16,121 nt of DNA from an uncultured Victivallales bacterium (GCA_964598575.1 CAZRCN010000019.1:1-16121), one strand, 5' to 3'. Counted from the stretch's first letter, positions 2,103 to 13,699 are shown. Notes: generated by a model not told the origin, from the letters alone. Translations and numbers: made by a program.

Positions 2103-2462
2103 ATGCCAAGCGCCTATCATGAAGACAACCTGTCCGAAGACGTCAAGGATACACACCGGGCTCTCGTCAGCCTGCAGGAAGAACTGGAGGCGGTGGATTG
2201 GTACAACCAGCGCGCCGATGTGACGACGGATGCGGAGTTGAAAGAGGTCTTGATTCATAATCGCAATGAGGAGATCGAGCATGCGGCCATGCTGCAGGAG
2301 TGGCTCCGTCGCAAGGTGCCCGCCTTTGACGAACAACTGCAAACATACCTCTTCGCGACACTCCCCATTACCGAGGTGGAAGAGGCGGCCGAGGCGGCTG
2401 AAGCCGAAGAGGGTGCGCCCGAAGCCGGAGATGGCTCGCTCGGCATAGGAACCAGTACATAA
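2103..2462 (+). CDS. Encapsulated ferritin-like protein (EncFtn / Flp), the cargo of a family-1 encapsulin. It has a ferritin-like four-helix core with an EEIEH-type metal-binding motif, an Ala/Glu-rich linker, and a C-terminal targeting peptide GSLGIGTST.
   Basis: The protein reads ...LQEELEAVDWYNQRADVTTDAELKEVLIHNRNEEIEHAAMLQEWL...AEAEEGAPEAGDGSLGIGTST. The ATG at 2103 is preceded by AAGGAGAG at 2088-2095. The ORF-track start at 2031 lacks an RBS. The encapsulin gene starts 23 nt downstream. Confidence 0.85.
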   Translation: MPSAYHEDNLSEDVKDTHRALVSLQEELEAVDWYNQRADVTTDAELKEVLIHNRNEEIEHAAMLQEWLRRKVPAFDEQLQTYLFATLPITEVEEAAEAAEAEEGAPEAGDGSLGIGTST

Positions 2463-2485: not shown

Positions 2486-3292
2486 ATGACAGATATGCTA
2501 AGAAGAAACCTTGCCCCCATCACAGCGGAGGCATGGAAGGAAATCGATGAAGAAGCCACCCGTACGTTGCGGACGCATCTTACGGCCCGGAATATCCTGG
2601 GTGTCAATGGTCCACATGGATGGTCACTGGGTGCAATCAATCTAGGCACACTGGATTTGGGTAAGCAAGAGCTAGTGCCTGATGTGGGGTGGGGGATGCG
2701 CAATGTCCTTCCGCTAACGGAAATACGGGTTCCCTTTCTTCTCGATACCTTCGAGTTGGATGATATAACCCGCGGCAGTAAAACACCGGATCTGGATGCG
2801 GTGGACGAAGCCGCGCAGAAGGCGGCGCTTTTTGAAGAAACGGCTATCTATAAGGGCTTTGCGCCAGCCGGTATCCAGGGGATATTGACGGCCAGCGCGC
2901 AAGAGGCTGTATCGCTGTCCGGAAAACCCGAGAATATGATCAAGGCGATCGAGCGAGGCGTGCATGCCCTGCAGCGCAGTGGCATTGCAGGACCGTATGA
3001 ACTGGTGCTCGGCGACGAGCCGTACCAGAAGCTGTATGCAGGAGAGGAAAGCTGCTATCCATTGTATCGCCAAGCAACCGAGATTCTGGGAGGAGGCATC
3101 CATTGGAGCCGGGCCTTGGAGGGCGGTGTGATTGTGAGTGCGCGTGGCGGGGACTTTGAGTTTAGTTGCGGGCAGGATCTCTCGATCGGGTACGCCATGG
3201 TGCAGGAGCAGCAGGTACATCTCTACCTGACCGAATCTTTCACCTTCCGGGTACTCGAACCGGAGGCGGCTGTACCGCTGACGGCGCAGTAG
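2486..3292 (+). CDS. Family-1 encapsulin shell protein (Linocin M18-like, HK97 fold), 268 aa.
   Basis: It is collinear with Thermotoga maritima encapsulin throughout, including the RGGDF, GQDLSIGY and TESFTF blocks at the matching C-terminal positions. The RBS AAGAGGAGA lies 6 nt before the ATG at 2486. Confidence 0.9.
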   Translation: MTDMLRRNLAPITAEAWKEIDEEATRTLRTHLTARNILGVNGPHGWSLGAINLGTLDLGKQELVPDVGWGMRNVLPLTEIRVPFLLDTFELDDITRGSKTPDLDAVDEAAQKAALFEETAIYKGFAPAGIQGILTASAQEAVSLSGKPENMIKAIERGVHALQRSGIAGPYELVLGDEPYQKLYAGEESCYPLYRQATEILGGGIHWSRALEGGVIVSARGGDFEFSCGQDLSIGYAMVQEQQVHLYLTESFTFRVLEPEAAVPLTAQ

Positions 3293-3369
3293 ATCGGAGG
3301 GCGGCTCACCGGGGTTCTGGAGTCGGTCCGTTCCCGGGCCGTAGCAGATGGCTGGCGGGGCAGCGCGTA

Positions 3370-3439
3370 GGATGCGGGACGGAGGGCGTCCTGGTACCAG
3401 ATTGGGATGCGGGACGGAGGGCGTCCGGGTGCAGATTCG
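3370..3439. repeat. Two tandem copies of a 35-bp unit, GGATGCGGGACGGAGGGCGTCC-N-GGT-N-CAGATT, at 3370-3403 and 3405-3439. Each contains a GGACG-GAGGG-CGTCC hairpin (5-bp stem, 5-nt loop). A third CGGAGGGCG motif lies at 3295-3303.
   Basis: Read directly in the 167-bp spacer between the encapsulin stop (3292) and the radical SAM start (3460). The unit length is not a multiple of 3, so it is not a peptide repeat. Confidence 0.5.
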
Positions 3440-3459
3440 AGGTTGGTGGGAGAGATGCG

Positions 3460-4464
3460 ATGAAAGAGGCGATGTTCTGGGAGAAGGAATCGGCGGATAC
3501 GGTTCGCTGCACGTTGTGCTATCAGCGCTGCCGGATCAAACCGGGGGCGCGGGGCATCTGCGGTGTACGTGAAAACCGCGCCGGCGAGCTGGTTACACTT
3601 GTGTATGGGCGTCCCATTTCCATCGCGGTAGATCCCATCGAAAAAAAGCCGTTGTACCATGTCCTACCCGGCAGCACCGCGCTTTCCCTTGGTACCGTGG
3701 GTTGCAATTTTCGGTGTCTGAACTGTCAGAATTGTTCTATTTCGCAGCTTCCGCCTGCTGGGGAGATAGGCGGGCATGAGGGGGTAACGCCTGAAACCAT
3801 TGTCGCTACCGCCAAGGCGAAGGGTTGCGAGAGTATTGCCTACACCTATACCGAGCCGACCATCTTCTTTGAATATGCCTACGATATTGCCAGGCTTGCC
3901 AAGCGCGAAGGCATCAGGAACCTGTTCGTTACAAATGGATATATCATGCCTGAAGCCCTTGAGAAGATGGCGCCCTATCTGGATGCTGCCAATATCGATC
4001 TCAAATTCTTCCGTGATGACCTGTACCGTGAGGTGGCTGGAGCCCGGCTGCAACCGATTCTTGATACGATCCGGCTCTATCACAAGCTGGGGATTTGGAT
4101 CGAAGTCACCACGTTGGTGATTCCCGGTTACAACGATGATGACGAACAGCTCGGCACCATGGCGTCATTCATATCTGACACGGATCCGAGTATACCGTGG
4201 CATCTATCCGCCTTTTTTCCGACCTACAAGCTCACCGATGCCGCCCCGACCCCGCTTGCAACACTGGAAAAGGCCCGAGCCATTGGCCACGCTGCCGGAC
4301 TTCAGCATGTCTACCTCGGAAATGTCCGGGAAGCTGCACATACTATCTGTCCCTCTTGTGGCACGGTGCTGGTAGAACGCCATGGCACGCATGTGCAGAT
4401 GCAGGGTCTGGCAGATAAGCGCTGTTCATCCTGCAAAACCCCAATCGGAGGCGTCTGGACATGA
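3460..4464 (+). CDS. Radical SAM enzyme, PflA-like / AmmeMemoRadiSam-system-type activase, 334 aa. It has an N-terminal Cys cluster (CTLCYQRC), the canonical SAM-cluster motif GCNFRCLNC (C-x3-C-x2-C), and a C-terminal CPSC...CSSC zinc-ribbon-like pair.
   Basis: Motifs were read from the translation, including EKKPLYHVLPGS and the C-x3-C-x2-C cluster. The start is the ATG at 3460 after GGTGGGAGAG. The upstream in-frame stretch 3166-3459 overlaps the encapsulin gene, crosses the tandem repeats and is Gly/Arg-rich, so I treat it as non-coding. Confidence 0.7.
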   Translation: MKEAMFWEKESADTVRCTLCYQRCRIKPGARGICGVRENRAGELVTLVYGRPISIAVDPIEKKPLYHVLPGSTALSLGTVGCNFRCLNCQNCSISQLPPAGEIGGHEGVTPETIVATAKAKGCESIAYTYTEPTIFFEYAYDIARLAKREGIRNLFVTNGYIMPEALEKMAPYLDAANIDLKFFRDDLYREVAGARLQPILDTIRLYHKLGIWIEVTTLVIPGYNDDDEQLGTMASFISDTDPSIPWHLSAFFPTYKLTDAAPTPLATLEKARAIGHAAGLQHVYLGNVREAAHTICPSCGTVLVERHGTHVQMQGLADKRCSSCKTPIGGVWT

Positions 4465-5105
4465 CCTTCAAGGATAGATCTGATGCAGGGCATCAAGTAG
4501 GATTGGCGTTGAAAGCCTATGGTGACAAGGGTCCGCTGGTTCTAGGCATACCACGGGGCGGGGTCGAGGTGGCCTATCAGGCAGCAAGGCTCTGCAACGC
4601 CGACTTTTCCATCCTGATTGTGAGGAAGCTGCCGTTTCCCGATAATCCCGAGGCTGGGTTTGGTGCGCTGGCAGAAGACGGCAGCCTGTATCTTATTCCC
4701 GATGCGGAACGTGCGATACCCCGCTCGGTTGTCGAGAACATTGTCCAGGCACAACGTACGGAAGTCAGGCGGCGCGTCGAGGTGCTGCGTGAGGGGCGGA
4801 AGCTTCCGTCGCTAGCTGGGCGCAACGTGGTGCTGGTCGATGACGGCATTGCAATGGGGTCGACGACGCAAGCGGCGGTCTTGTGTTGCCGCAATCTGCA
4901 TGCGGCCCATATAACGGTGGCAGCACCAGTAGCGTCCCCTCGAGCTGTGGATGCCCTGTATCCCGTTGCGGACCGGGTCATTGCGCTCCATGCCCCCGAC
5001 GCCTTCAGGGCCGTGGCGGCCTTTTACCAAAACTGGTATGACGTTCCCGATGACGAGGTTATTCGTATATTGAGAATGGCAGAGCAAGAAGCACTGCTGC
5101 AATAA
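4461..5105 (+). CDS. Phosphoribosyltransferase-family protein (COG1926-type predicted PRTase), 214 aa. Its PRPP-binding loop is VVLVDDGIAMGSTTQAA.
   Basis: The type-I PRTase signature (hydrophobic-DDG-x-A-x-GST) is present, and the overall layout matches the stand-alone predicted-PRTase family. The ATG at 4461 overlaps the radical SAM TGA at 4462-4464 (ATGA). Confidence 0.75.
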   Translation: MTFKDRSDAGHQVGLALKAYGDKGPLVLGIPRGGVEVAYQAARLCNADFSILIVRKLPFPDNPEAGFGALAEDGSLYLIPDAERAIPRSVVENIVQAQRTEVRRRVEVLREGRKLPSLAGRNVVLVDDGIAMGSTTQAAVLCCRNLHAAHITVAAPVASPRAVDALYPVADRVIALHAPDAFRAVAAFYQNWYDVPDDEVIRILRMAEQEALLQ

Positions 5106-5123
5106 TGAGAAAGGAAGTATAGC

Positions 5124-5690
5124 ATGCAAGTACCACTGGAAATCGCCTTTCGGGATGTATCCCGAACGCCCGAGATCGATCGGCTCATCGAGAAGAAAGT
5201 TGCGCGACTTGAGCAAGTCTGCAACAATCTCATCAGTTGCCGTATTGCGATAGAACAGCCGCAGAAGCATCAGCAGCAGGGCAACCCGTACCGCGTCCGC
5301 ATCGAGATGCATGTCCCACCCAAACATGAGCTCATTGCAAAAAGCAAGCCGGGAGACAATCCGATGCATGAGGGGCTGCATGCTGTGATTACGGACACAT
5401 TCGACACCGCCGAACGCAGACTGCGCAAGCAGATGGGCAAGCTCCAGGGCGAAACAAAGCGTCATCCCGATCAAGAGCCGATGGCCTTCATCGGGAAGAT
5501 CTTCAAGGACGAGGGCTACGGATTTATCTGGGGTATGGATGGCACGGAATATTACTTCCACCGCAATAGTGTGCTGCACGATGCCTTCGATCGGCTCGAA
5601 AAGGGCACGGGAGTCAATTTCGTTCCCGAGAGCGGCGACGAAGGACCCCAGGCTAGCAGCGTTGAAATGATCGACAAGCCATCCCTATAG
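5124..5690 (+). CDS. Fusion of an HPF/RaiA (YfiA-fold ribosome-associated inhibitor) domain with a cold-shock domain, 188 aa.
   Basis: The N-terminal roughly 105 aa match the HPF/RaiA fold (LIEKKVARLEQVCNNLISCRIAIE...YRVRIEMHVPPKHELIAKSK...AVITDTFDTAERRLRK). The C-terminal roughly 65 aa are a cold-shock domain with the FIGKIFKDEGYGFIWGMDGTEYYFHRNSV RNP-like motifs. The RBS AAAGGAAG precedes the ATG at 5124, which is 18 nt after the PRTase stop. Confidence 0.75.
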   Translation: MQVPLEIAFRDVSRTPEIDRLIEKKVARLEQVCNNLISCRIAIEQPQKHQQQGNPYRVRIEMHVPPKHELIAKSKPGDNPMHEGLHAVITDTFDTAERRLRKQMGKLQGETKRHPDQEPMAFIGKIFKDEGYGFIWGMDGTEYYFHRNSVLHDAFDRLEKGTGVNFVPESGDEGPQASSVEMIDKPSL

Positions 5691-5774
5691 TTGATCCAGG
5701 AAATGGGCGCAAGCGGGAGATACGATTACCGCTTGGATAGCAGTTGCCCGTCTGCCATCTGGATGGAAGCCGGC

Positions 5775-6464
5775 TTAGGCTCTTACGCCAAATACACATC
5801 CGACACCGTAGGTGAGCCCCATAGCCAGTGCACCCCAAAACGTCACCCTGATAGCACCGATCATAAGGGGTGCGCCCCCCGTTCGTGCAGCCGCTCCACC
5901 AAGAAACGCCAAAAACACGAGCGATAAGGTTGCAACGGCAGGGATCAGATAGTTGCCTGGCATAGCCCATGCGATAACAAGCGGCAGGGCCGCACCAACG
6001 GTAAAGGAGGCCGCCGACGAGCATGTTGCTAGCACCGGCTGAGCCCTGACAGTTCCCGATATGCCGATGTCATCCCGGGCGTGCGCATCCAGGGGGTCTT
6101 TGGCCATGAGCTGTTCTGCAACTTGTCTGGCCAGAACAGGTTCAACACCCCGATGTTGGTATATCGTTGCAAGCTCATCCTTTTCGGACTCGATGTCGTT
6201 CTCTAATGATTTCTTTTCGAGGTCTAGATCTGCTTTTTCGGTGTCCGATTTAGAACTGACGGACACATACTCGCCAGCCGCCATAGACATGGCCCCAGCA
6301 ACTAATCCCGCAAGACCCGCAAGAAGAATGTTCTCTTGTGCTGCACCTCCAGCCGCAACGCCAATAATAAGACTGGCCGTAGACACGATTCCGTCATTCG
6401 CGCCTAAGACGACTGCACGCAACCACCCCCCGCGTTTCGATCTGTGTCTTGCATGATGGCTCAT
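5775..6464 (-). CDS. VIT1/CCC1-family iron/manganese transporter (vacuolar iron transporter-like).
   Basis: The conserved motif WLRAVVLGANDGIVSTASLIIGVAA is present, with two hydrophobic blocks separated by a charged central loop. The ATG at 6464 is the first Met. The ORF track extends to a TTG at 6503, which would overlap the DUF2267 gene. No strong RBS is visible for either start. Confidence 0.75.
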   Translation of the reverse strand: MSHHARHRSKRGGWLRAVVLGANDGIVSTASLIIGVAAGGAAQENILLAGLAGLVAGAMSMAAGEYVSVSSKSDTEKADLDLEKKSLENDIESEKDELATIYQHRGVEPVLARQVAEQLMAKDPLDAHARDDIGISGTVRAQPVLATCSSAASFTVGAALPLVIAWAMPGNYLIPAVATLSLVFLAFLGGAAARTGGAPLMIGAIRVTFWGALAMGLTYGVGCVFGVRA

Positions 6465-6486
6465 GTGCCTGCACGGGGATATGGGG

Positions 6487-6852
6487 TTAGAAGAGGGAGG
6501 CAAAGTCGTTGGGTAGTTGAGACCAGATGTGCTGGAATTCGCCTGTGCTTACGGCTTCCGACAGGACCGAGAGCACGATCTTGATGTGCTGTTCGGCCGT
6601 GGGCGTATTGACACCTTCGCGCTCGGCTACCATCTGCACGAAGGTATCGCGATCGAAGGGCTGATTGGCCTCTGCCGGAATCAGGTAGTCCTTGACGCCA
6701 TCGGGTAACTGCGCCGCCAGATCGGAGGATTCGCCTCCATAGAGTCGTTTGCCAAGCACTTCCAGGGTTGCCCGGGTTGCTTTTTCGGCTGCAGGTTCAT
6801 CGGCCAGCTCGGCGCGGTTTCTTACTTGCGAGATGAATGTATTGCGATCCAT
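6487..6852 (-). CDS. DUF2267 domain protein, 121 aa.
   Basis: It matches the DUF2267 family along its whole length (FISQVRNRAELADEPAAEKATRATLEVLGKRL...DLAAQLP...REGVNTP...HIKIVLSVLSEAVSTGEF). A strong RBS GGAAGGAGAAC precedes the ATG on the minus strand. Confidence 0.85.
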   Translation of the reverse strand: MDRNTFISQVRNRAELADEPAAEKATRATLEVLGKRLYGGESSDLAAQLPDGVKDYLIPAEANQPFDRDTFVQMVAEREGVNTPTAEQHIKIVLSVLSEAVSTGEFQHIWSQLPNDFASLF

Positions 6853-7010: not shown

Positions 7011-7104
7011 AGTACGGATGCAGGATAGACTTGCGAGCAGTATGGCAAAAACCCCTGATAGGCGGGCAGAGACTGCGGGATTGTATCTTCACGAAGGAGG
7101 TGTT

Positions 7105-8421
7105 TTGAGAGTTGTTGGGCTATGTATGGTACTGTTGTTGGGTGTAGGGTCTGTGCAGTCACGGGACCTCACGCTCGAGCAGGCGCTTGCGGTAGCGGAA
7201 GCGCAGAGTACCACGCTGCAAAAGCTGGATGCAGGGCTATCTCTGGCAAAGGCCAGGCACCTGCGTTCTGCCCAGGCGTTCCTGCCCAAGGTGTCGATGG
7301 ATGCAACGTGGTTTCGAGCGGATGCAACGTTGCTGGAAGATGTGCCGTTTCCGTCCCTGCGCCCACAGCCACGCTTGGCGTATCGCGATCTCGGACCGCT
7401 GGAGGGTGCGATGGGCGGTGTTCAAATTCTGCAACCGCTTTTGTATGTCTCGGGGCTGCAGGCGCGCCGGCAGGCTGACCATATCGTTGCGGCGCAGCAA
7501 CAGTCGCACACCTGGGGCCGTCTGCAAATGCGTTTCGAGGTGGTCCGGCTCTATTATGCGGTTACGGTACAGGAGGAGCATGAACGTGCGGCCGAAGACG
7601 CGCTGGCCGCAGCGCAGCAAGCACATCAGATGGCAAAGGCCGCCTATCAAGAAGGGCTTGTTCCCAAGCTGGATGTGATGCGGGCTCTGGCGGAGTTGGA
7701 AGCGAGCCGGGCACGACGTACGAGTGCTGCAGCCGATGTGCAGGCAGCCCGCATTGCATTGGCGACCCTGCTTGGGCTTTCGCCGCAAGAGCGCCAGGTT
7801 CTTGTAGATGCTTTTCCGGAGCCAATCCCCCCACTTGAACAACCCCTGTCATCTATGGGGCGAAGCGATCTTGGGGCGCAGGAGGAGCGGCAAAAAGCGG
7901 CGGCGGCGGGGCTGGACAAGGCACAGGCGCGCTGGGTACCCAAGGTTGTGTTGCTGGGGCGGCAGCAATGGATAGATGGTGAAGATGCTCTGACGTCCGA
8001 TGCGGATAGCTGGCTGGTGGCGCTTCAGTTGCAGTGGTCCTGGTTTGATGGACTGGATCGCGAAGGCGAGATCCGGGAAGCGCGTGCAGAATATCGACTG
8101 GCACAGACTGAGCTAGAGGCTGCCCAGCGCCGTGTGCAGGAAGAGCAACTTCTGGCAGCTAGTACGTGGCGTTCGGCTTGGTCTGCCTGGCAGGCGGCCG
8201 TAGGCGCACGGGATGCGGCGGGCGAAGCCTTGCGTCTTGCCCAGCGGCAATATGAGGAGAATCTTGTTTCCATGACGGATTTGCTTGCTACCCAGGCCAC
8301 GTTCTATGCGCAGCAACGAGCCTATACCTGCAAGCGCTACAACGTGCTACTGGCCTCCATGAACTATTATCTGCGTTATGGTATGGATCCATTAACGGCT
8401 CTACCCGGAGAGACACCATGA
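7105..8421 (+). CDS. TolC-family outer-membrane efflux protein (OEP), the outer-membrane channel of an RND system.
   Basis: It has the OEP-family coiled-coil/beta repeat layout with an N-terminal signal peptide (RVVGLCMVLLLGVGSVQS) followed by LTLEQALAVAEAQS. I chose the TTG at 7105 with AAGGAGG at 7094-7100. The ORF-track ATG at 7018 would add 29 non-signal residues and has no RBS. The stop overlaps the next start (ATGA at 8418-8421). Confidence 0.8.
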   Translation: MRVVGLCMVLLLGVGSVQSRDLTLEQALAVAEAQSTTLQKLDAGLSLAKARHLRSAQAFLPKVSMDATWFRADATLLEDVPFPSLRPQPRLAYRDLGPLEGAMGGVQILQPLLYVSGLQARRQADHIVAAQQQSHTWGRLQMRFEVVRLYYAVTVQEEHERAAEDALAAAQQAHQMAKAAYQEGLVPKLDVMRALAELEASRARRTSAAADVQAARIALATLLGLSPQERQVLVDAFPEPIPPLEQPLSSMGRSDLGAQEERQKAAAAGLDKAQARWVPKVVLLGRQQWIDGEDALTSDADSWLVALQLQWSWFDGLDREGEIREARAEYRLAQTELEAAQRRVQEEQLLAASTWRSAWSAWQAAVGARDAAGEALRLAQRQYEENLVSMTDLLATQATFYAQQRAYTCKRYNVLLASMNYYLRYGMDPLTALPGETP

Positions 8422-9545
8422 AACCTAGGGATGTGAATGTTCGCTTGATTCTTATTGCCGCAGCTATGACAGCCTTTACCGCTGCCGGTTGTTCTGAGGC
8501 ACAGGATGAGCAGGCGTCAGCGGATGGGCATCCGGATGCAGTTGCTTCCGTGCAGGTGGCAAAGATTACACCGTGGCAGCAGGACGGAACCCGCCGTTTT
8601 CCGGGGGTGGTACACCCCATCCGGCGCGCCGTTCTGAGTACGCGGGCGAACGGCACGATCCACGCGATCAAAGTTGCAGCCGGGGACAATGTGGCAGCCG
8701 GGACGGTGCTGGCAGAAATGGAAGCACGCGATCTGGAGGCAGCCATTGCCGGGATCCGGGAACGGTTAAAGGCTGCAGAGGCTGCCGACGAACAAGCCGG
8801 GCGCGACGTACAGCGCCTGGAGGCTCTAGCCGCAGAGGACCTGATTGCCAGGAATCGTTTGGAAAAGGCCAGGGTCCGTAAACGCGAGACAGAGGCGCAG
8901 GTGGAAACGATTCGCGCGGAAGTAGATGTCCAGGAGCTGAATCGGGACTATGCACATGTTACGGCACCTTTTGACGGGATTGTGGGCGAGGTGATACGGG
9001 ATGAAGGATCATTTGCAGGCCCGGGGCAGCCCATTGTGATCCTGGACGACCGCTCGGCGTTGCAAATAGATGTGCCGGTGCCTGCAAATATTGCCAGCCG
9101 GGTGCATCCGCAAGCGGTCCTGCTTGCAAATGACGCCTCCTTGCCGGATCCCTTGCCGCTGCACGTTGTAGCGGTCGTGCCAGCTTTTCCCGGTAAGCGT
9201 GGTGGCCAGATCCTGCAGCTTTTGCTCGAGAATCCTCCTGAGGCGATACAGCCCGGACAGGTGGTAGAGGTAGCCCTGCAAGTGCCGACAGAGGATGAGC
9301 TGGTTGCCTTGCCGCAAGCCGCGCTGATTCGTCGAGGCCAGCTGACGGGTGTTATGGTTGTGGAAAAAAGAGATGACAAACAGGTCATGGTGCTGCGATG
9401 GATCCAGACTGCTGCGCCAAGTGTCAGGGCAGATGATGTGCTACCCGTTCGAAGAGGATTGCAACCGGGTGAACGGGTCGTGCTGCATCCTTCGCCCGAT
9501 GCGCGCGACGGCCAACAGGTACGGGTCGAGAAGGGGGCTCCCTGA
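8418..9545 (+). CDS. RND efflux periplasmic adaptor subunit (membrane fusion protein, HlyD/AcrA family), a lipoprotein.
   Basis: A lipobox ...FTAAGC follows a hydrophobic signal segment. The protein has coiled-coil-rich lipoyl and beta-barrel regions typical of membrane fusion proteins. Its stop overlaps the RND start (TGATG at 9542-9547). Confidence 0.85.
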   Translation: MKPRDVNVRLILIAAAMTAFTAAGCSEAQDEQASADGHPDAVASVQVAKITPWQQDGTRRFPGVVHPIRRAVLSTRANGTIHAIKVAAGDNVAAGTVLAEMEARDLEAAIAGIRERLKAAEAADEQAGRDVQRLEALAAEDLIARNRLEKARVRKRETEAQVETIRAEVDVQELNRDYAHVTAPFDGIVGEVIRDEGSFAGPGQPIVILDDRSALQIDVPVPANIASRVHPQAVLLANDASLPDPLPLHVVAVVPAFPGKRGGQILQLLLENPPEAIQPGQVVEVALQVPTEDELVALPQAALIRRGQLTGVMVVEKRDDKQVMVLRWIQTAAPSVRADDVLPVRRGLQPGERVVLHPSPDARDGQQVRVEKGAP

Positions 9546-12500
9546 TGGAAACCGAACTGGGCCTGGCCGGGCAGATTGCAAAGCGGGTTCTAAACGCCCC
9601 GCTGGTTCCCCTGTTCGTGGTTGCCTGTCTTGTTTTGGGCAGCTACAGTTTGATGATTACGCCCCGTGAGGACCGTCCGGATATCGACGTACCAACGGCC
9701 GTGGTTGTTATTCCGTGGCCGGGTGGTGGCGTGGAACGTGTGGATGATCAGTTGGCCCGACGTGTAGGGGGGTGGGTACGTGCCATTCCATCTGTCACGG
9801 ATATACGCAGCAGCAGTACCGACCATGCCGCCTTACTGATCGTGGAATTTGAGACAGGAACAGCCGAAACAACCGCGTACGCCGAATTGGATGAGCAGTT
9901 GCGAGGTCACGCCGCAGCGATGCCCGTGGGAGCGGGGTCTCCACATATCGAGACGTTTGGGGCGGAACGCCTGGTCATGTTTATGGCCACCTTGAGCAGC
10001 AAGACCCATAGTCCCCGTGAGCTGGATCAGATTGCCGGTGAGTTTTCCGCCCGCTTGGCATCGGTCCCGGGGGTGCGCACCATCACGCGTTATGGTGGGG
10101 AGCAGAAGGCGATTGAAATCCTGCCGCGACTGGAACCGATGGCTGGCTACGGTATTTCGCTGCCACAGATGGCCGAAGTCATTGCGGCGGCAGGGATGCA
10201 GCGCCCTTTGGGCCATTTGGAACAATCGCCGGTGCGGTCCGTCCAAGCGGGCATCGATAGCAGTAGTACAGCCAAATTGGCCCGTCTTCCCGTGGGAAAG
10301 AGTGCTGCGGGGCCCGTGTATTTGGAGGATGTTGCGGATATCCGCGATGGAGTCGTTCGCCGGAACCAGGCGGTTTTGCATGGGCGACGCGGGCAATCCG
10401 CCCTGTACCCAGCCGTTACGCTGGCCGTGACGACCCTTGCGGGTGAAAATGTAAGTGATGTGACGCGCAGGCTACAGGAGCAAATGGCCGTGCTGCGTGC
10501 CGAACTATTGCCATCGGATGTGGCGCTCACGGTCAGCTATGATGCGGGCCGTGAGGCGACCAAACGCGTCTTTAACGTACTGCGACAATTGCTGATGGGC
10601 ACATTGATCGTCGTGGGCATTATCCTGGTCGGGCTCGGTCTGCGTGCCGCCCTGATTATTGCCCTGATGATGCCAGTCTCCTTGGCCGTGGTTCCCTTTC
10701 TGTATTATCGCTTTGATTTTACGCTCAATCCCGTCTCCATAGCAGCGATGATATTGGCGATTGGTATTCTTTCCGATGATGCTGTGGTGATGCTCGAAAA
10801 CATGTATCGGCATTTTCGCAGGGCAGGGGAGAAGACCCGGGAACTGACGGTGAAAGCGGTAAACGAGGTTGGCAATCCGACGATTCTTGCCGATTTGCTG
10901 GTGGTGGCGACGTTGCTGCCGACGGCATATATTACCGGTGAAATGGGCCAGTATGTTCGTGCCCTCCCGGTCGGGGCATCGGCCGCCGTGCTCTTTTCCC
11001 TGCTGGTCGCTCTTACGATTACGCCGTACTTCGGTATTCGGTTGCTCCGGGTGCATAGCACTCGTCATCAGGGGCCTTCTGCGACTAAGCATAGGCAAGA
11101 ATCGAGAGAGAATCAGCAGCAGAACAAGATGGGCTATGACCGCATCTATCGTACGATTATGGCACCACTGATGCACCATGCTGTCTTGCGCTGGATTTTG
11201 TATATCTGCCTTATCTGCCTGCTTGTTTCAGCATTTGCGCTGGTAGGATTCCGCAGGGTGCAGATTGGCTTAACCCCTTTGCTGGATCGTCAGGTCTTTG
11301 TCGTGCATGTAGAGCTTCCACCGGGTGCCTCCCTGACAGAAACGCTTGCCGCAACTTCAGATGTCATGCATCAACTGCGTAAGCTGCCAGACATTCATTC
11401 CGTGACCCTATATGCAGGTACGGATGCGCCGCAGATCTACCCCGCCTCCCATATCAACATTCCGAGGGAAACCCCGCCGCATATTGCCCGCATACATGTG
11501 GAAATGGTGCCGAAATCGGAACGTCAGAAACGCAGTTACGAGGTAAGTCGCACCGTTGCGCACCAGTTGGGGGATTGGCTGACACCTTATGATGCGACAG
11601 GGTATATTGCCCGCATTCCCTCCGGGCCATCCAGCCACCGCGATATCACTGCTGAAATCTATGGACAGGATGCTGCTGCGCGTCAGGCGGTGGCCGACCG
11701 GGTCGCAGTGTGGTTGCGCACGCAGCCCGGTGTTGTTGTGGTGGAAGAGCGTCCTGATGCGCCGTTGGACAGGCTCAATGTGTGGGTGGACCCGCAGCGG
11801 GCTGCTACATTGGGCGTCATCCCCGCGAACGTAACGCAGACGCTCTCGCTGACGGTGCACGGCAGTATCCTGACCGATTGGGCCGGGACAATCTCCCGCG
11901 AACCGGTTCCGGTGGTCCTGCGGTTGGAGAAAACGCGCCGTGATCGTGTCGAAGCCCTACAGGAAATCTACGTGCAGGATAGAGCCGGCCATCCGGTCCC
12001 CCTGGAATATCTGGTTACCTTTGAATACAGGCAAGGGGCTCCGGTGCGATACCGCCGCAACTTGCTGCCGATTACGACGGTCTTTGCCGATCTGGACCGA
12101 TCAGTGGTGCAGCCGGTGACCATCCAAATGGCGGCTGATGCAGAGATGCAGGCAGATATGTCTGACGAGCCGCTTGCCGTGCGTTGGCTTGCCCCACCCG
12201 AGGTGTCCTCTCAAAAGGCAGAGCTGTACTGGTCCGGGGAATGGGAAATGACACGCGACGTCTACCGCGATCTTGGTGCAGCCGGTCTTGTGGTTATGCT
12301 GCTGATCTATTTGCTGTTGGCTGGGTGGTTCAAGTCCTACGCGCTGCCATTGCTGATTATGCTACCCATCCCACTGATCGGTATCGGGGTCATCCCTGCA
12401 CATTGGCTATGGGGGATACCTATTGCCGGAACCGGTGTGCTCGGTATGATTACCCTCGCTGGCATCGTGGCGCGCAATTCGATTCTTCTGGTGGATTTCA

Positions 12501-12766
12501 TCAAGCAGCGCGAGGGTGAAGGCATGGAGCTACGGGAAGCTGTGCTACAAGCTGGCGTGATTCGCACGCGCCCCATTCTGCTGACGGCTGCGACGGTCAT
12601 GTTCGGGAGCGGGGTCCTGATCTTTGAACCCTCGTTGAAACCGCTGGGCCTGACCCTGGCCAGCGGTGTATTGTTTTCCACGCTCGTGACGCTCGTACTG
12701 ATCCCCATTCTCTATTTTCATGTCCATCAGCACAGCAATGCCGGATACATCCGCCAGCTGATGTGA
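9545..12766 (+). CDS. RND-superfamily efflux permease (AcrB/CzcA-like), 1073 aa.
   Basis: It has the 12-TM RND architecture with two large periplasmic loops and is the third gene of the TolC-adaptor-RND operon. The N-terminus (METELGLAGQIAKRVL...) is atypical for either the HAE1 or HME subfamily. Confidence 0.9.
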   Translation: METELGLAGQIAKRVLNAPLVPLFVVACLVLGSYSLMITPREDRPDIDVPTAVVVIPWPGGGVERVDDQLARRVGGWVRAIPSVTDIRSSSTDHAALLIVEFETGTAETTAYAELDEQLRGHAAAMPVGAGSPHIETFGAERLVMFMATLSSKTHSPRELDQIAGEFSARLASVPGVRTITRYGGEQKAIEILPRLEPMAGYGISLPQMAEVIAAAGMQRPLGHLEQSPVRSVQAGIDSSSTAKLARLPVGKSAAGPVYLEDVADIRDGVVRRNQAVLHGRRGQSALYPAVTLAVTTLAGENVSDVTRRLQEQMAVLRAELLPSDVALTVSYDAGREATKRVFNVLRQLLMGTLIVVGIILVGLGLRAALIIALMMPVSLAVVPFLYYRFDFTLNPVSIAAMILAIGILSDDAVVMLENMYRHFRRAGEKTRELTVKAVNEVGNPTILADLLVVATLLPTAYITGEMGQYVRALPVGASAAVLFSLLVALTITPYFGIRLLRVHSTRHQGPSATKHRQESRENQQQNKMGYDRIYRTIMAPLMHHAVLRWILYICLICLLVSAFALVGFRRVQIGLTPLLDRQVFVVHVELPPGASLTETLAATSDVMHQLRKLPDIHSVTLYAGTDAPQIYPASHINIPRETPPHIARIHVEMVPKSERQKRSYEVSRTVAHQLGDWLTPYDATGYIARIPSGPSSHRDITAEIYGQDAAARQAVADRVAVWLRTQPGVVVVEERPDAPLDRLNVWVDPQRAATLGVIPANVTQTLSLTVHGSILTDWAGTISREPVPVVLRLEKTRRDRVEALQEIYVQDRAGHPVPLEYLVTFEYRQGAPVRYRRNLLPITTVFADLDRSVVQPVTIQMAADAEMQADMSDEPLAVRWLAPPEVSSQKAELYWSGEWEMTRDVYRDLGAAGLVVMLLIYLLLAGWFKSYALPLLIMLPIPLIGIGVIPAHWLWGIPIAGTGVLGMITLAGIVARNSILLVDFIKQREGEGMELREAVLQAGVIRTRPILLTAATVMFGSGVLIFEPSLKPLGLTLASGVLFSTLVTLVLIPILYFHVHQHSNAGYIRQLM

Positions 12767-12898: not shown

Positions 12899-13699
12899 AT
12901 GATCAGAACCGTCACCGTTTATACAGGCGATAGCGATTGTGCACAGGCTGCACAGCAACACGCGATTGCATTGGCGAAACACGTTTCGGCCCGCTTGAAG
13001 ATTGTTGGTCTTGGCGACGCGAAACAGGGCTTTCGTGATGGAAGTAGCACGGAATCGGTTGCAGACCTTATGCAGCGTAAACGGGCGTCGCTAGCTGAGA
13101 CGGCGGAAAGAGCCGGAGTCCGGGTTGTCTCCGATGTACGGGGCAATGGGCTGAAGCGGGGCTTGCTGGAAGAGGCACGGGAAACGGATGTGCTTGTTCT
13201 GGGGCTGCCCACGGAGGCCGATATGGCATCCGACGATGCTGCCACACATCTTGTCCGGAAGGAACGACCTGTTCTCCGGAAGGCCCATTGCGCGCTGCTG
13301 CTTGTCAATCAGCCTCCCGTGCCCGTAAAGCGCATCCTGGCATGCTACGATGATGAGCCTGTGGGCCAGCGGATGCTGCAGATGGCTGGTAGCATCGCCG
13401 AGGCATATCAAGCACGTATCGGGGTCTTTGCCAATGAAAACGACTTGGCCAAGGCGCGGGAGCTTGCTGATGCAGCCAAAGCATATCTGGAAGGTTATGA
13501 TGTTCCTGCCATTGACACGATCGCCGTATCACGGCCGAAAGGTTCCAGGGTAGAGATTCTCCATGCAGCCGAGTCTTTCGAAGCGGATCTGATCACCATG
13601 GGCGAAGAGGGACATAACTGGCTGGAACGGATGTTTTGTAAAAACGTGGCCGAACGAACGGCAATGGCGACACCGGTTCCGCTTCTCATCGTCAGGTGA
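12899..13699 (+). CDS. Universal stress protein with tandem UspA domains, 266 aa.
   Basis: There are two Usp domains. The second ends in the typical ...ADLITMGEEGHNWLERMFCKNVAERTAMATPVPLLIVR. The RBS AAAGGAGA precedes the ATG at 12899, and a possible TTGACA -35 element lies at 12858-12863. Confidence 0.85.
   Translation: MIRTVTVYTGDSDCAQAAQQHAIALAKHVSARLKIVGLGDAKQGFRDGSSTESVADLMQRKRASLAETAERAGVRVVSDVRGNGLKRGLLEEARETDVLVLGLPTEADMASDDAATHLVRKERPVLRKAHCALLLVNQPPVPVKRILACYDDEPVGQRMLQMAGSIAEAYQARIGVFANENDLAKARELADAAKAYLEGYDVPAIDTIAVSRPKGSRVEILHAAESFEADLITMGEEGHNWLERMFCKNVAERTAMATPVPLLIVR

Follow-up and report, generated by a model that had tools for sequence, protein, structure and literature searches.

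What does a protein do that joins a ribosome-binding domain of the HPF/RaiA type to a cold-shock domain (CSD), and is it a new kind of hibernation factor or a member of a family that already has a name? The question is raised by an open reading frame (ORF) at positions 5124-5690 of the window, i.e., the whole stretch of 16,121 nucleotides from an uncultured Victivallales bacterium that was analysed here. An earlier note, made from the sequence alone, had read this ORF as an HPF/RaiA domain fused to a CSD in the place of the usual dimerisation domain of long HPFs, and had suggested a hibernation factor tethered to mRNA or rRNA rather than one that dimerises ribosomes. Sequence comparison, structure models and analogy with a solved ribosome complex together indicate that the 188-aa product is very probably a ribosome hibernation factor of the HPFcold class, orthologous to CBU_0020 of Coxiella burnetii and working as a 70S-type factor. 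Publications of 2025-26 already cover the HPF-CSD architecture, how it sits on the ribosome, how it works and how widely it is distributed, and the gene in the window is a further copy of a known family. The gene and its parts are listed below.

5124-5690, plus strand: gene of a putative ribosome hibernation factor of the HPFcold type, 188 codons and a stop (ORF translation, two-domain Pfam match, full-length CBU_0020 match)
5111-5117, plus strand: Shine-Dalgarno-like AAGGAAG, 6 nt 5′ of the ATG (read from the sequence)
5124-5450, plus strand: N-terminal HPF/RaiA domain (Ribosomal_S30AE, PF02482), residues 1-109 (Pfam, AlphaFold2, Foldseek, N-domain profile)
5451-5483, plus strand: inter-domain linker, residues ~110-120 (pLDDT and conservation)
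5457-5468, plus strand: K112-x-H114-P115 linker motif, residues 112-115
5484-5669, plus strand: C-terminal CSD, residues 121-182 (Pfam, PDB Csp matches, contact residues aligned to CBU_0020)

The ORF starts with an ATG located 18 nt downstream of the stop codon of a PRTase gene. A promoter consensus scan returned sites at or below the level of shuffled sequence and none upstream of the HPF-CSD gene, a terminator scan of positions 3292-5690 found none, and a hairpin at ~5710-5735, downstream of the gene, was not better than its shuffles (z -0.9). A promoter or terminator proper to this gene found no support in these scans. No structured RNA turned up when the window was scanned with Rfam models and for tRNAs; the 16S rRNA gene of the organism lies outside it. 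On the opposite strand, a 255-aa ORF without Pfam match (4812-5579, minus strand) overlaps the HPF-CSD gene; in a sequence of ~56% GC it is probably a chance ORF, and it was discarded as a gene.

Both domains proposed for the protein score above their Pfam gathering thresholds, and the fold models agree with the fusion. Ribosomal_S30AE (PF02482) covers residues 6-108 (E 3.4e-11, 44.2 bits where 23.7 are required), whereas the C-terminal part is recognized as a CSD (PF00313) by profile search at residues 125-181 (E 2e-08, 34.4 bits against 27). The long-HPF dimerisation domain PF16321 (Ribosom_S30AE_C), which the earlier note had held to be missing, has no match in the 188-aa protein in a Pfam scan at E<=1, and the aromatic motifs that it had pointed out in the CSD are indeed present, YGFI at residues 132-135 and YYFH at residues 143-146. 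By NCBIfam standards, both halves depart from the canonical stand-alone proteins: with TIGR00741 (yfiA) the 188-aa protein reaches only 26 bits, below the cutoff of 40.9, and the NCBIfam Csp models give 13-29 bits, far under their cutoffs of 115-152 (29 against 130 for the best of them).

An AlphaFold2 model built from an alignment of 52 homologs (mean pLDDT 80.3 for the 188-aa protein) predicts an N-terminal domain at residues 5-109 with the order beta-alpha-beta-beta-beta-alpha and a C-terminal domain at residues 121-182 folded as the five-stranded barrel of a CSD. The two are joined by a linker of low confidence (~110-120), in which pLDDT falls below 50 at residues 111-115, and the mutual orientation of the N-domain and the CSD in the model is uncertain (pTM 0.53). 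The linker, estimated beforehand at roughly 25 aa, turned out shorter: the model gives ~11 residues, and the two Pfam envelopes are 16 residues apart. With Foldseek, run against PDB entries up to April 2026, the N-terminal half matches ribosome-bound RaiA/HPF (8rd8_D, 4v8i, 6h4n, 4y4o) at target-normalised TM scores of 0.75-0.89 and the C-terminal half matches Csp proteins at ~0.8. Sequence profiles point the same way: a profile restricted to the N-domain finds PDB chains of HPF and RaiA bound to ribosomes, aligning with them in helix alpha1 and in the basic motif of alpha2 (R98 R99 L100 R101 K102), and for the CSD the best PDB Csp matches have E values of 1e-6 when the sequence is searched singly and 3e-11 when the family profile is used.

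The family to which the protein belongs is indicated, on the basis of sequence, by a single PDB entry pair. A phmmer search of the PDB gives a full-length match to 9t0z_9/9tze, a chain of 183 aa annotated as “Ribosome hibernation promoting factor” (E 2.5e-35), in which query residues 1-181 align with chain residues 6-179; the family profile matches 9t0z with an E value of 1.2e-47. This chain is C. burnetii CBU_0020, named HPFcold (PDB 9T0Z, 9TZE; Stuart et al., Nat Commun 2026;17:7049, PMC13392368). BLASTP aligns the 188-aa protein with CBU_0020 over 180 aa, of which 38% are identical and 58% positive (E 5e-43). The two proteins thus share an N-terminal S30AE/HPF-RaiA domain, a short linker, a C-terminal CSD and collinear homology over their full length. 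Chimeric HPFs had been described earlier by Chan et al. (bioRxiv 10.1101/2025.11.04.686544), who reported fusions to Csp, SigE or CBS domains; according to them, horizontal transfer has dispersed these chimeras, which are found alongside a canonical HPF and occupy variable loci, often adjoining Balon genes. Among the ORFs scanned in the 16-kb window, no second HPF, RMF or Balon gene was found.

The cryo-EM structure of CBU_0020, which was seen on ribosomes purified from cells, places the PF02482 domain in the 30S decoding centre, with the protein filling the mRNA path, and the CSD in the mRNA exit channel, where the 16S anti-Shine-Dalgarno (anti-SD) 3′ tail is wrapped round it through the sequence ACCUC (PMC13392368). 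U1534 stacks on Y142, while C1535 stacks on F132 and is paired to R123 (PMC13392368 supplement); R177 forms a salt bridge to 16S G924-925/C1530, and bS21 and uS7 hold the CSD, bS21 acting as a pincer (PMC13392368). Only 70S particles were observed and no dimers were seen, and Stuart et al. proposed that the CSD keeps RNases away from the 16S 3′ end, a protection otherwise provided by RMF or by long-HPF 100S formation (PMC13392368).

In a pairwise alignment, F132, Y142, R123 and R177 of CBU_0020 correspond to F134, Y144, K125 and S179 of the window protein, i.e., the residues that contact the anti-SD tail are kept, with lysine for arginine at position 125, and the residue of the R177 bridge is not. 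The same pattern holds across the 52 homologs: 51 have F at position 134, 50 have Y at position 144, and 45 have K or R at position 125. At position 179, T occurs 37 times, S 14 times and N once, and R never. The R177 bridge therefore looks specific to the Coxiella lineage, and is probably a detail of that lineage rather than a family-defining trait, judging from the alignment. Around the contact residues, none of the homologs departs from G133, F145, H146 or N148, and at least 96% of them keep Y132, F134 and Y144. Over the same 52 sequences, the mean majority frequency is 0.73 for the CSD against 0.66 for the N-domain, in agreement with Stuart et al., who found the CSD to be more conserved than the N-domain (PMC13392368).

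The linker bears a conserved element as well. K112, H114 and P115 are each conserved in at least 90% of the 52 homologs, forming a nearly invariant K-x-H-P motif that is maintained despite the disorder predicted there (pLDDT <50), and CBU_0020 carries K-T-H-P at the aligned position. The motif probably contacts rRNA along the mRNA channel. Compared with CBU_0020, the window protein carries six additional residues in its N-domain (approximately residues 76-81, in the loop that leads into helix alpha2), and its linker is longer by one residue; compared with canonical HPFs, the HPF-CSD family has an extended beta2-beta3 hairpin (PQKHQQQGNPY).

Transposed to the window protein by analogy with CBU_0020, these observations suggest the following course of events. 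The N-terminal HPF/RaiA-fold domain would bind the 30S decoding centre and overlap both the A-site tRNA and the mRNA path, which would block translation, and the short KxHP linker would run along the mRNA path to the C-terminal CSD. Lodged in the mRNA exit channel, the CSD would hold the single-stranded anti-SD 3′ tail of 16S rRNA on its aromatic face, a clamp in which F134 and Y144 are predicted to stack and K125 to pair. The predicted outcome is a 70S monomer, idle and protected from RNase, and no 100S dimer, and the CSD would take on the protection of the 16S 3′ end that is ensured elsewhere by RMF or by the long-HPF dimer interface. Ribosome binding, anti-SD binding and the 70S outcome are all carried over to the 188-aa protein from the Coxiella complex.

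Identification of the protein as an HPFcold is favoured by the two Pfam domains, the full-length homology, the contact residues, the predicted folds and the lack of PF16321. On the other side of the balance lie the identity of only 38% to the sole structurally characterised member of the family, the replacement of R177 by S179, the N-domain insertion and the TIGR00741 score below cutoff. Three other readings of the ribosome-related evidence and one technical explanation were weighed against it.

The CSD might have another ligand. With the N-domain seated on the ribosome, it could bind the 5′ leaders of mRNAs or other single-stranded RNA, such that selected mRNAs would be held on idle ribosomes or the protein would act as a tethered RNA chaperone. 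CSDs are general binders of single-stranded nucleic acids and the RNP1/RNP2-like motifs are intact here; moreover, the rRNA bridge made by R177 in Coxiella is absent from the clade of the window protein, and the linker is slightly longer than that of CBU_0020. These points are outweighed by the fact that the residues stacking on the anti-SD in 9T0Z are the most conserved of the family. In CBU_0020 the N-domain and linker fill the mRNA path and leave no room for mRNA, and a linker of ~11 aa would confine the CSD to the region of the exit channel. We consider such an mRNA-binding role improbable. As for the suggestion of a tether to mRNA or rRNA in a factor that does not dimerise ribosomes, the CBU_0020 structure, with its anti-SD rRNA ligand and its 70S particles only, speaks by analogy for the rRNA and for the monomer and against the mRNA. 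The reading of the earlier note, that of a tethered factor that leaves ribosomes undimerised, is supported in this respect and agrees with the mechanism as published.

A second possibility is that the CSD itself drives ribosome dimerisation, through contacts between two CSDs or between the CSD and the 30S subunit of the partner ribosome, which would amount to a new route to 100S particles. Some Csp proteins, e.g., CspD, form dimers. Furthermore, Stuart et al. state that dimers could have been lost while the sample was prepared, and leave room for dimerisation through the CSD (PMC13392368 supplementary discussion). However, no dimers were seen for CBU_0020, the face of its CSD is taken by the anti-SD, with bS21 and uS7 gripping the domain, and the 188-aa protein lacks any PF16321-like domain. 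This scenario is quite unlikely.

Least plausible of the functional readings, and very unlikely in our opinion, is a protein that does not act on the ribosome at all and uses its S30AE fold and CSD to bind nucleic acids as a regulator of transcription or RNA stability of the adjoining radical SAM (rSAM), PRTase and encapsulin genes. The divergence of the N-domain, which scores below the TIGR00741 cutoff, lends it some credit, as do the single-sequence phmmer search, in which 9t0z is the sole match among the PDB HPF chains, and the variable genomic location of the family. It is contradicted by its direct homolog CBU_0020, found on ribosomes purified from cells, by the N-domain profile and fold, which match ribosome-bound HPF/RaiA down to the basic alpha2 motif, and by the rSAM and encapsulin context, which is not conserved across the family.

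HPFcold, the preferred identification, sets the window protein apart from the better-known classes of hibernation factors and cold-shock proteins. CBU_0020 is the closest of the known systems: 183 aa against 188 aa, with PF02482 followed by PF00313, collinear at 38% identity, the same KxHP linker, no dimerisation domain, and F132, Y142 and R123 conserved as F134, Y144 and K125. The differences reside in S179 for R177 (T or S across the window clade), in the 6-residue loop insertion and in the one extra residue of the linker. Furthermore, the window gene comes from an uncultured environmental bacterium, whereas Coxiella is an intracellular pathogen, and it lies in an EncFtn-encapsulin-rSAM-PRTase string. 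With the chimeric HPFs of Chan et al., the family shares a variable genomic location and, in some relatives, Balon-like (baeRF) neighbours.

Long HPFs, exemplified by those of S. aureus, L. lactis and B. subtilis (PDB 5ngm, 5myj, 5njt), have a homologous N-domain of the same fold, joined by a linker to a second domain, and their C-terminal part also lies near the mRNA exit and the 16S 3′ end of the 30S subunit (PMC13392368). In the window protein, the linker is shorter, the C-terminal domain scores and folds as a CSD, i.e., an OB fold and not PF16321, and the predicted product is a 70S monomer and not a 100S dimer. RaiA/YfiA and the pair formed by short HPF and RMF in E. coli (PDB 4v8i, 4v8h, 6h4n) resemble it by the fold of the N-domain and by its predicted binding to the decoding centre; the predicted 70S-type hibernation is shared with RaiA, and the predicted occupation and protection of the anti-SD region with RMF. 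Here, one polypeptide would do both jobs, with a folded CSD in the place of RMF or of the C-terminal tail of RaiA. Short HPF/RaiA proteins consist of a single domain of ~95-115 aa that scores above the TIGR00741 cutoff, unlike this two-domain protein of 188 aa, whose score with that RaiA/YfiA model lies below it. Finally, CspA, CspB and CspE have the same five-stranded OB fold with RNP1/RNP2-like aromatic motifs (TM ~0.8, 27-38% identity), but are stand-alone proteins of ~65-75 aa, whereas the CSD of the window protein is not free-standing and forms the C-terminal third of 188 aa. Its N-terminal strand is shorter and devoid of the tryptophan of the CspA “KWF”, and its predicted ligand is a fixed rRNA tail in lieu of a range of mRNAs. 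By analogy with CBU_0020, such genes would best be annotated as HPFcold-type factors making 70S monomers, and neither as long HPF nor as CspA.

The combination of Ribosomal_S30AE and CSD, for which a search of its taxonomic spread had been suggested, is widespread. A homolog search of 5.8 billion proteins returned 1826 with an E value of 1e-3 or lower; among the 120 best of them, nearly all are proteins of 186-244 aa that carry both Pfam domains. When species-representative genomes were scanned, at least 591 proved to encode a relative, and they belong to at least 15 named lineages: Lentisphaerota/Victivallales, Calditrichota, Zixibacteria, Desulfobacterota, Planctomycetota, Omnitrophota, Bacteroidota/Ignavibacteria, Nitrospirota, Cyanobacteria, Fibrobacterota, Chloroflexota, Gemmatimonadota, Latescibacterota, Sumerlaeota, and Hydrogenedentota. 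The nearest relative among GTDB species representatives is encoded by a Victivallales MAG and is 64% identical. The chance that the fusion is an assembly or sequencing artefact, in which a frameshift joined separate hpf and csp genes, is negligible: two other assemblies, obtained independently, contain the identical 188-aa protein in the same gene order, nearly all of the 120 best homologs have both domains and a similar length, a relative is encoded in the species counted above, and the structure of a fused protein has been solved (9t0z).

The HPF-CSD architecture, as published, answers the question of how the 16S 3′ end is protected in bacteria that possess neither RMF nor a dimerising long HPF. 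The window contributes an environmental member of the family, which indicates that the residues stacking on the anti-SD are kept far from Coxiella and that the R177 bridge is not. What the present analysis adds to the published work is minor: the conservation of the anti-SD-stacking residues, but not of R177, across distant phyla, the KxHP motif, and a recurrent and apparently unreported PRTase/DUF2267 neighbourhood. The genes surrounding the HPF-CSD gene in the window are as follows.

2103-2462, plus strand: EncFtn (encapsulated ferritin, TIGR04535)
2486-3292, plus strand: family-1 encapsulin shell (NF041155)
3460-4464, plus strand: AmmeMemoRadiSam-type radical SAM enzyme (TIGR04337, 352 bits against a cutoff of 220; start according to the gene call of locus L001)
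4461-5105, plus strand: TT1426-like type I PRTase (Pfam Pribosyltran; PDB 1wd5, E 8.7e-38)
5775-6503 in the ORF list, or 5775-6464 in the L001 gene call, minus strand: VIT1 iron transporter, convergent with the putative HPFcold gene
6487-6852, minus strand: DUF2267 gene (Pfam DUF2267, 123 bits)

The 3′ end of the rSAM gene overlaps the start of the PRTase gene by 4 nt (ATGA). Because of this overlap and of the 18-nt gap that follows the PRTase gene, the rSAM, PRTase and HPFcold genes are likely co-transcribed. The placement of the gene in one operon with the rSAM and PRTase genes, as formulated in the earlier note, holds in this sense locally, whereas across the family only the PRTase recurs (17/80 loci) and the rSAM linkage (1/80) is specific to the lineage of the window. 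The rSAM gene is translationally coupled to the PRTase gene through the ATGA overlap; no AMMECR1 or Memo partner gene of the rSAM is visible in the window. Upstream and on the same strand, EncFtn and the encapsulin, together with the convergent VIT1 gene, lend the region an iron/oxidative-stress theme. The EncFtn-encapsulin-rSAM-PRTase-HPFcold string is kept in a relative with 78% identity (L003), VIT1 being the exception, and DUF2267 is present there. At 64% identity or less the string is lost, the homologs at 64%, 63% and 54% sitting in unrelated contexts.

Conservation of the neighbourhood was examined at 80 related HPF-CSD loci, whose fetched flanks were searched by tblastn with the neighbour proteins of the window. 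A PRTase homolog was found in the flanks of 17 of the 80 loci, mostly directly upstream and on the same strand, DUF2267 in 9, and the rSAM in one, plus close relatives; encapsulin, EncFtn, VIT1, Usp and ExoD were found at none of the 80. A family-wide operon with the rSAM and encapsulin genes was rejected on these counts (1/80 for rSAM, 0/80 for encapsulin and EncFtn). Unbiased clustering of all ORFs within 3 kb of the HPF-CSD genes of the 80 loci produced a single dominant neighbour cluster, PRTase/DUF2267, present at 23 loci. Many of the PRTase-linked loci come from Nostocales cyanobacteria, so that these counts are not phylogenetically independent. Of its 25 ORFs, 24 are on the same strand as the HPF-CSD gene, 23 lie upstream and 19 are located within 500 bp. 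The PRTase, often accompanied by DUF2267, is upstream and co-oriented in the lineage of the window, in Calditrichaceae, in Zixibacteria and in many Nostocales cyanobacteria (loci with a co-oriented upstream PRTase: L012, L030, L044, L059, L061, L067, L070, L071, L075, L077, L079, and L085; loci with DUF2267: L003, L013, L030, L043, L077, and L083). In the Zixibacteria locus L030, of which the sequence is partly masked, the order HPFcold-DUF2267-PRTase is found on one strand, and the two downstream genes are possibly fused. The next most frequent neighbours are a PRC-barrel protein (9 loci, in cyanobacteria), FtsH (7 loci) and baeRF-family, Balon-like proteins of the aeRF1 type (6 loci, i.e., a gene at 4725-5876 on the plus strand of L025 and five other loci), the last being consistent with the Balon neighbours described by Chan et al. 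(bioRxiv 10.1101/2025.11.04.686544).

The PRTase/DUF2267 linkage is not mentioned by Stuart et al. (PMC13392368) or by Chan et al. (bioRxiv 10.1101/2025.11.04.686544), and a literature search for DUF2267 together with phosphoribosyl returned nothing. This recurrent neighbourhood could point to regulators of the HPFcold mode of hibernation. The TT1426-like PRTase, often with DUF2267, is conceivably a functional partner of HPFcold, governing, for instance, how hibernation begins or ends by means of a nucleotide signal or of a phosphoribosyl modification, a proposal that we regard as speculative and rather unlikely; under it, the modified target could be either the factor or the ribosome. In the lineage of the window, the PRTase module is moreover joined to an encapsulated-ferritin nanocompartment and an AmmeMemoRadiSam-type rSAM in one stress gene string. 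The neighbours found in the window and in relatives are related to stress (Usp, DUF2267, EncFtn/encapsulin, hemerythrin, BON, CBS, Lon, SOD, HtrA, and baeRF/Balon-like proteins), and these genes and the literature on the family suggest that the HPF-CSD gene may be expressed under stress or in stationary phase.

The remainder of the window contains, at positions 230/494-1171 on the plus strand, an ORF without Pfam match that is yet called a gene in L001, and, at 7018-12766 on the same strand, a complete RND efflux operon that codes for an OEP outer-membrane factor, an HlyD/CusB-type periplasmic adaptor and an AcrB-family pump. Further downstream, a tandem universal stress protein with two Usp domains (12899-13699, plus strand) adds to the stress-gene character of the region.
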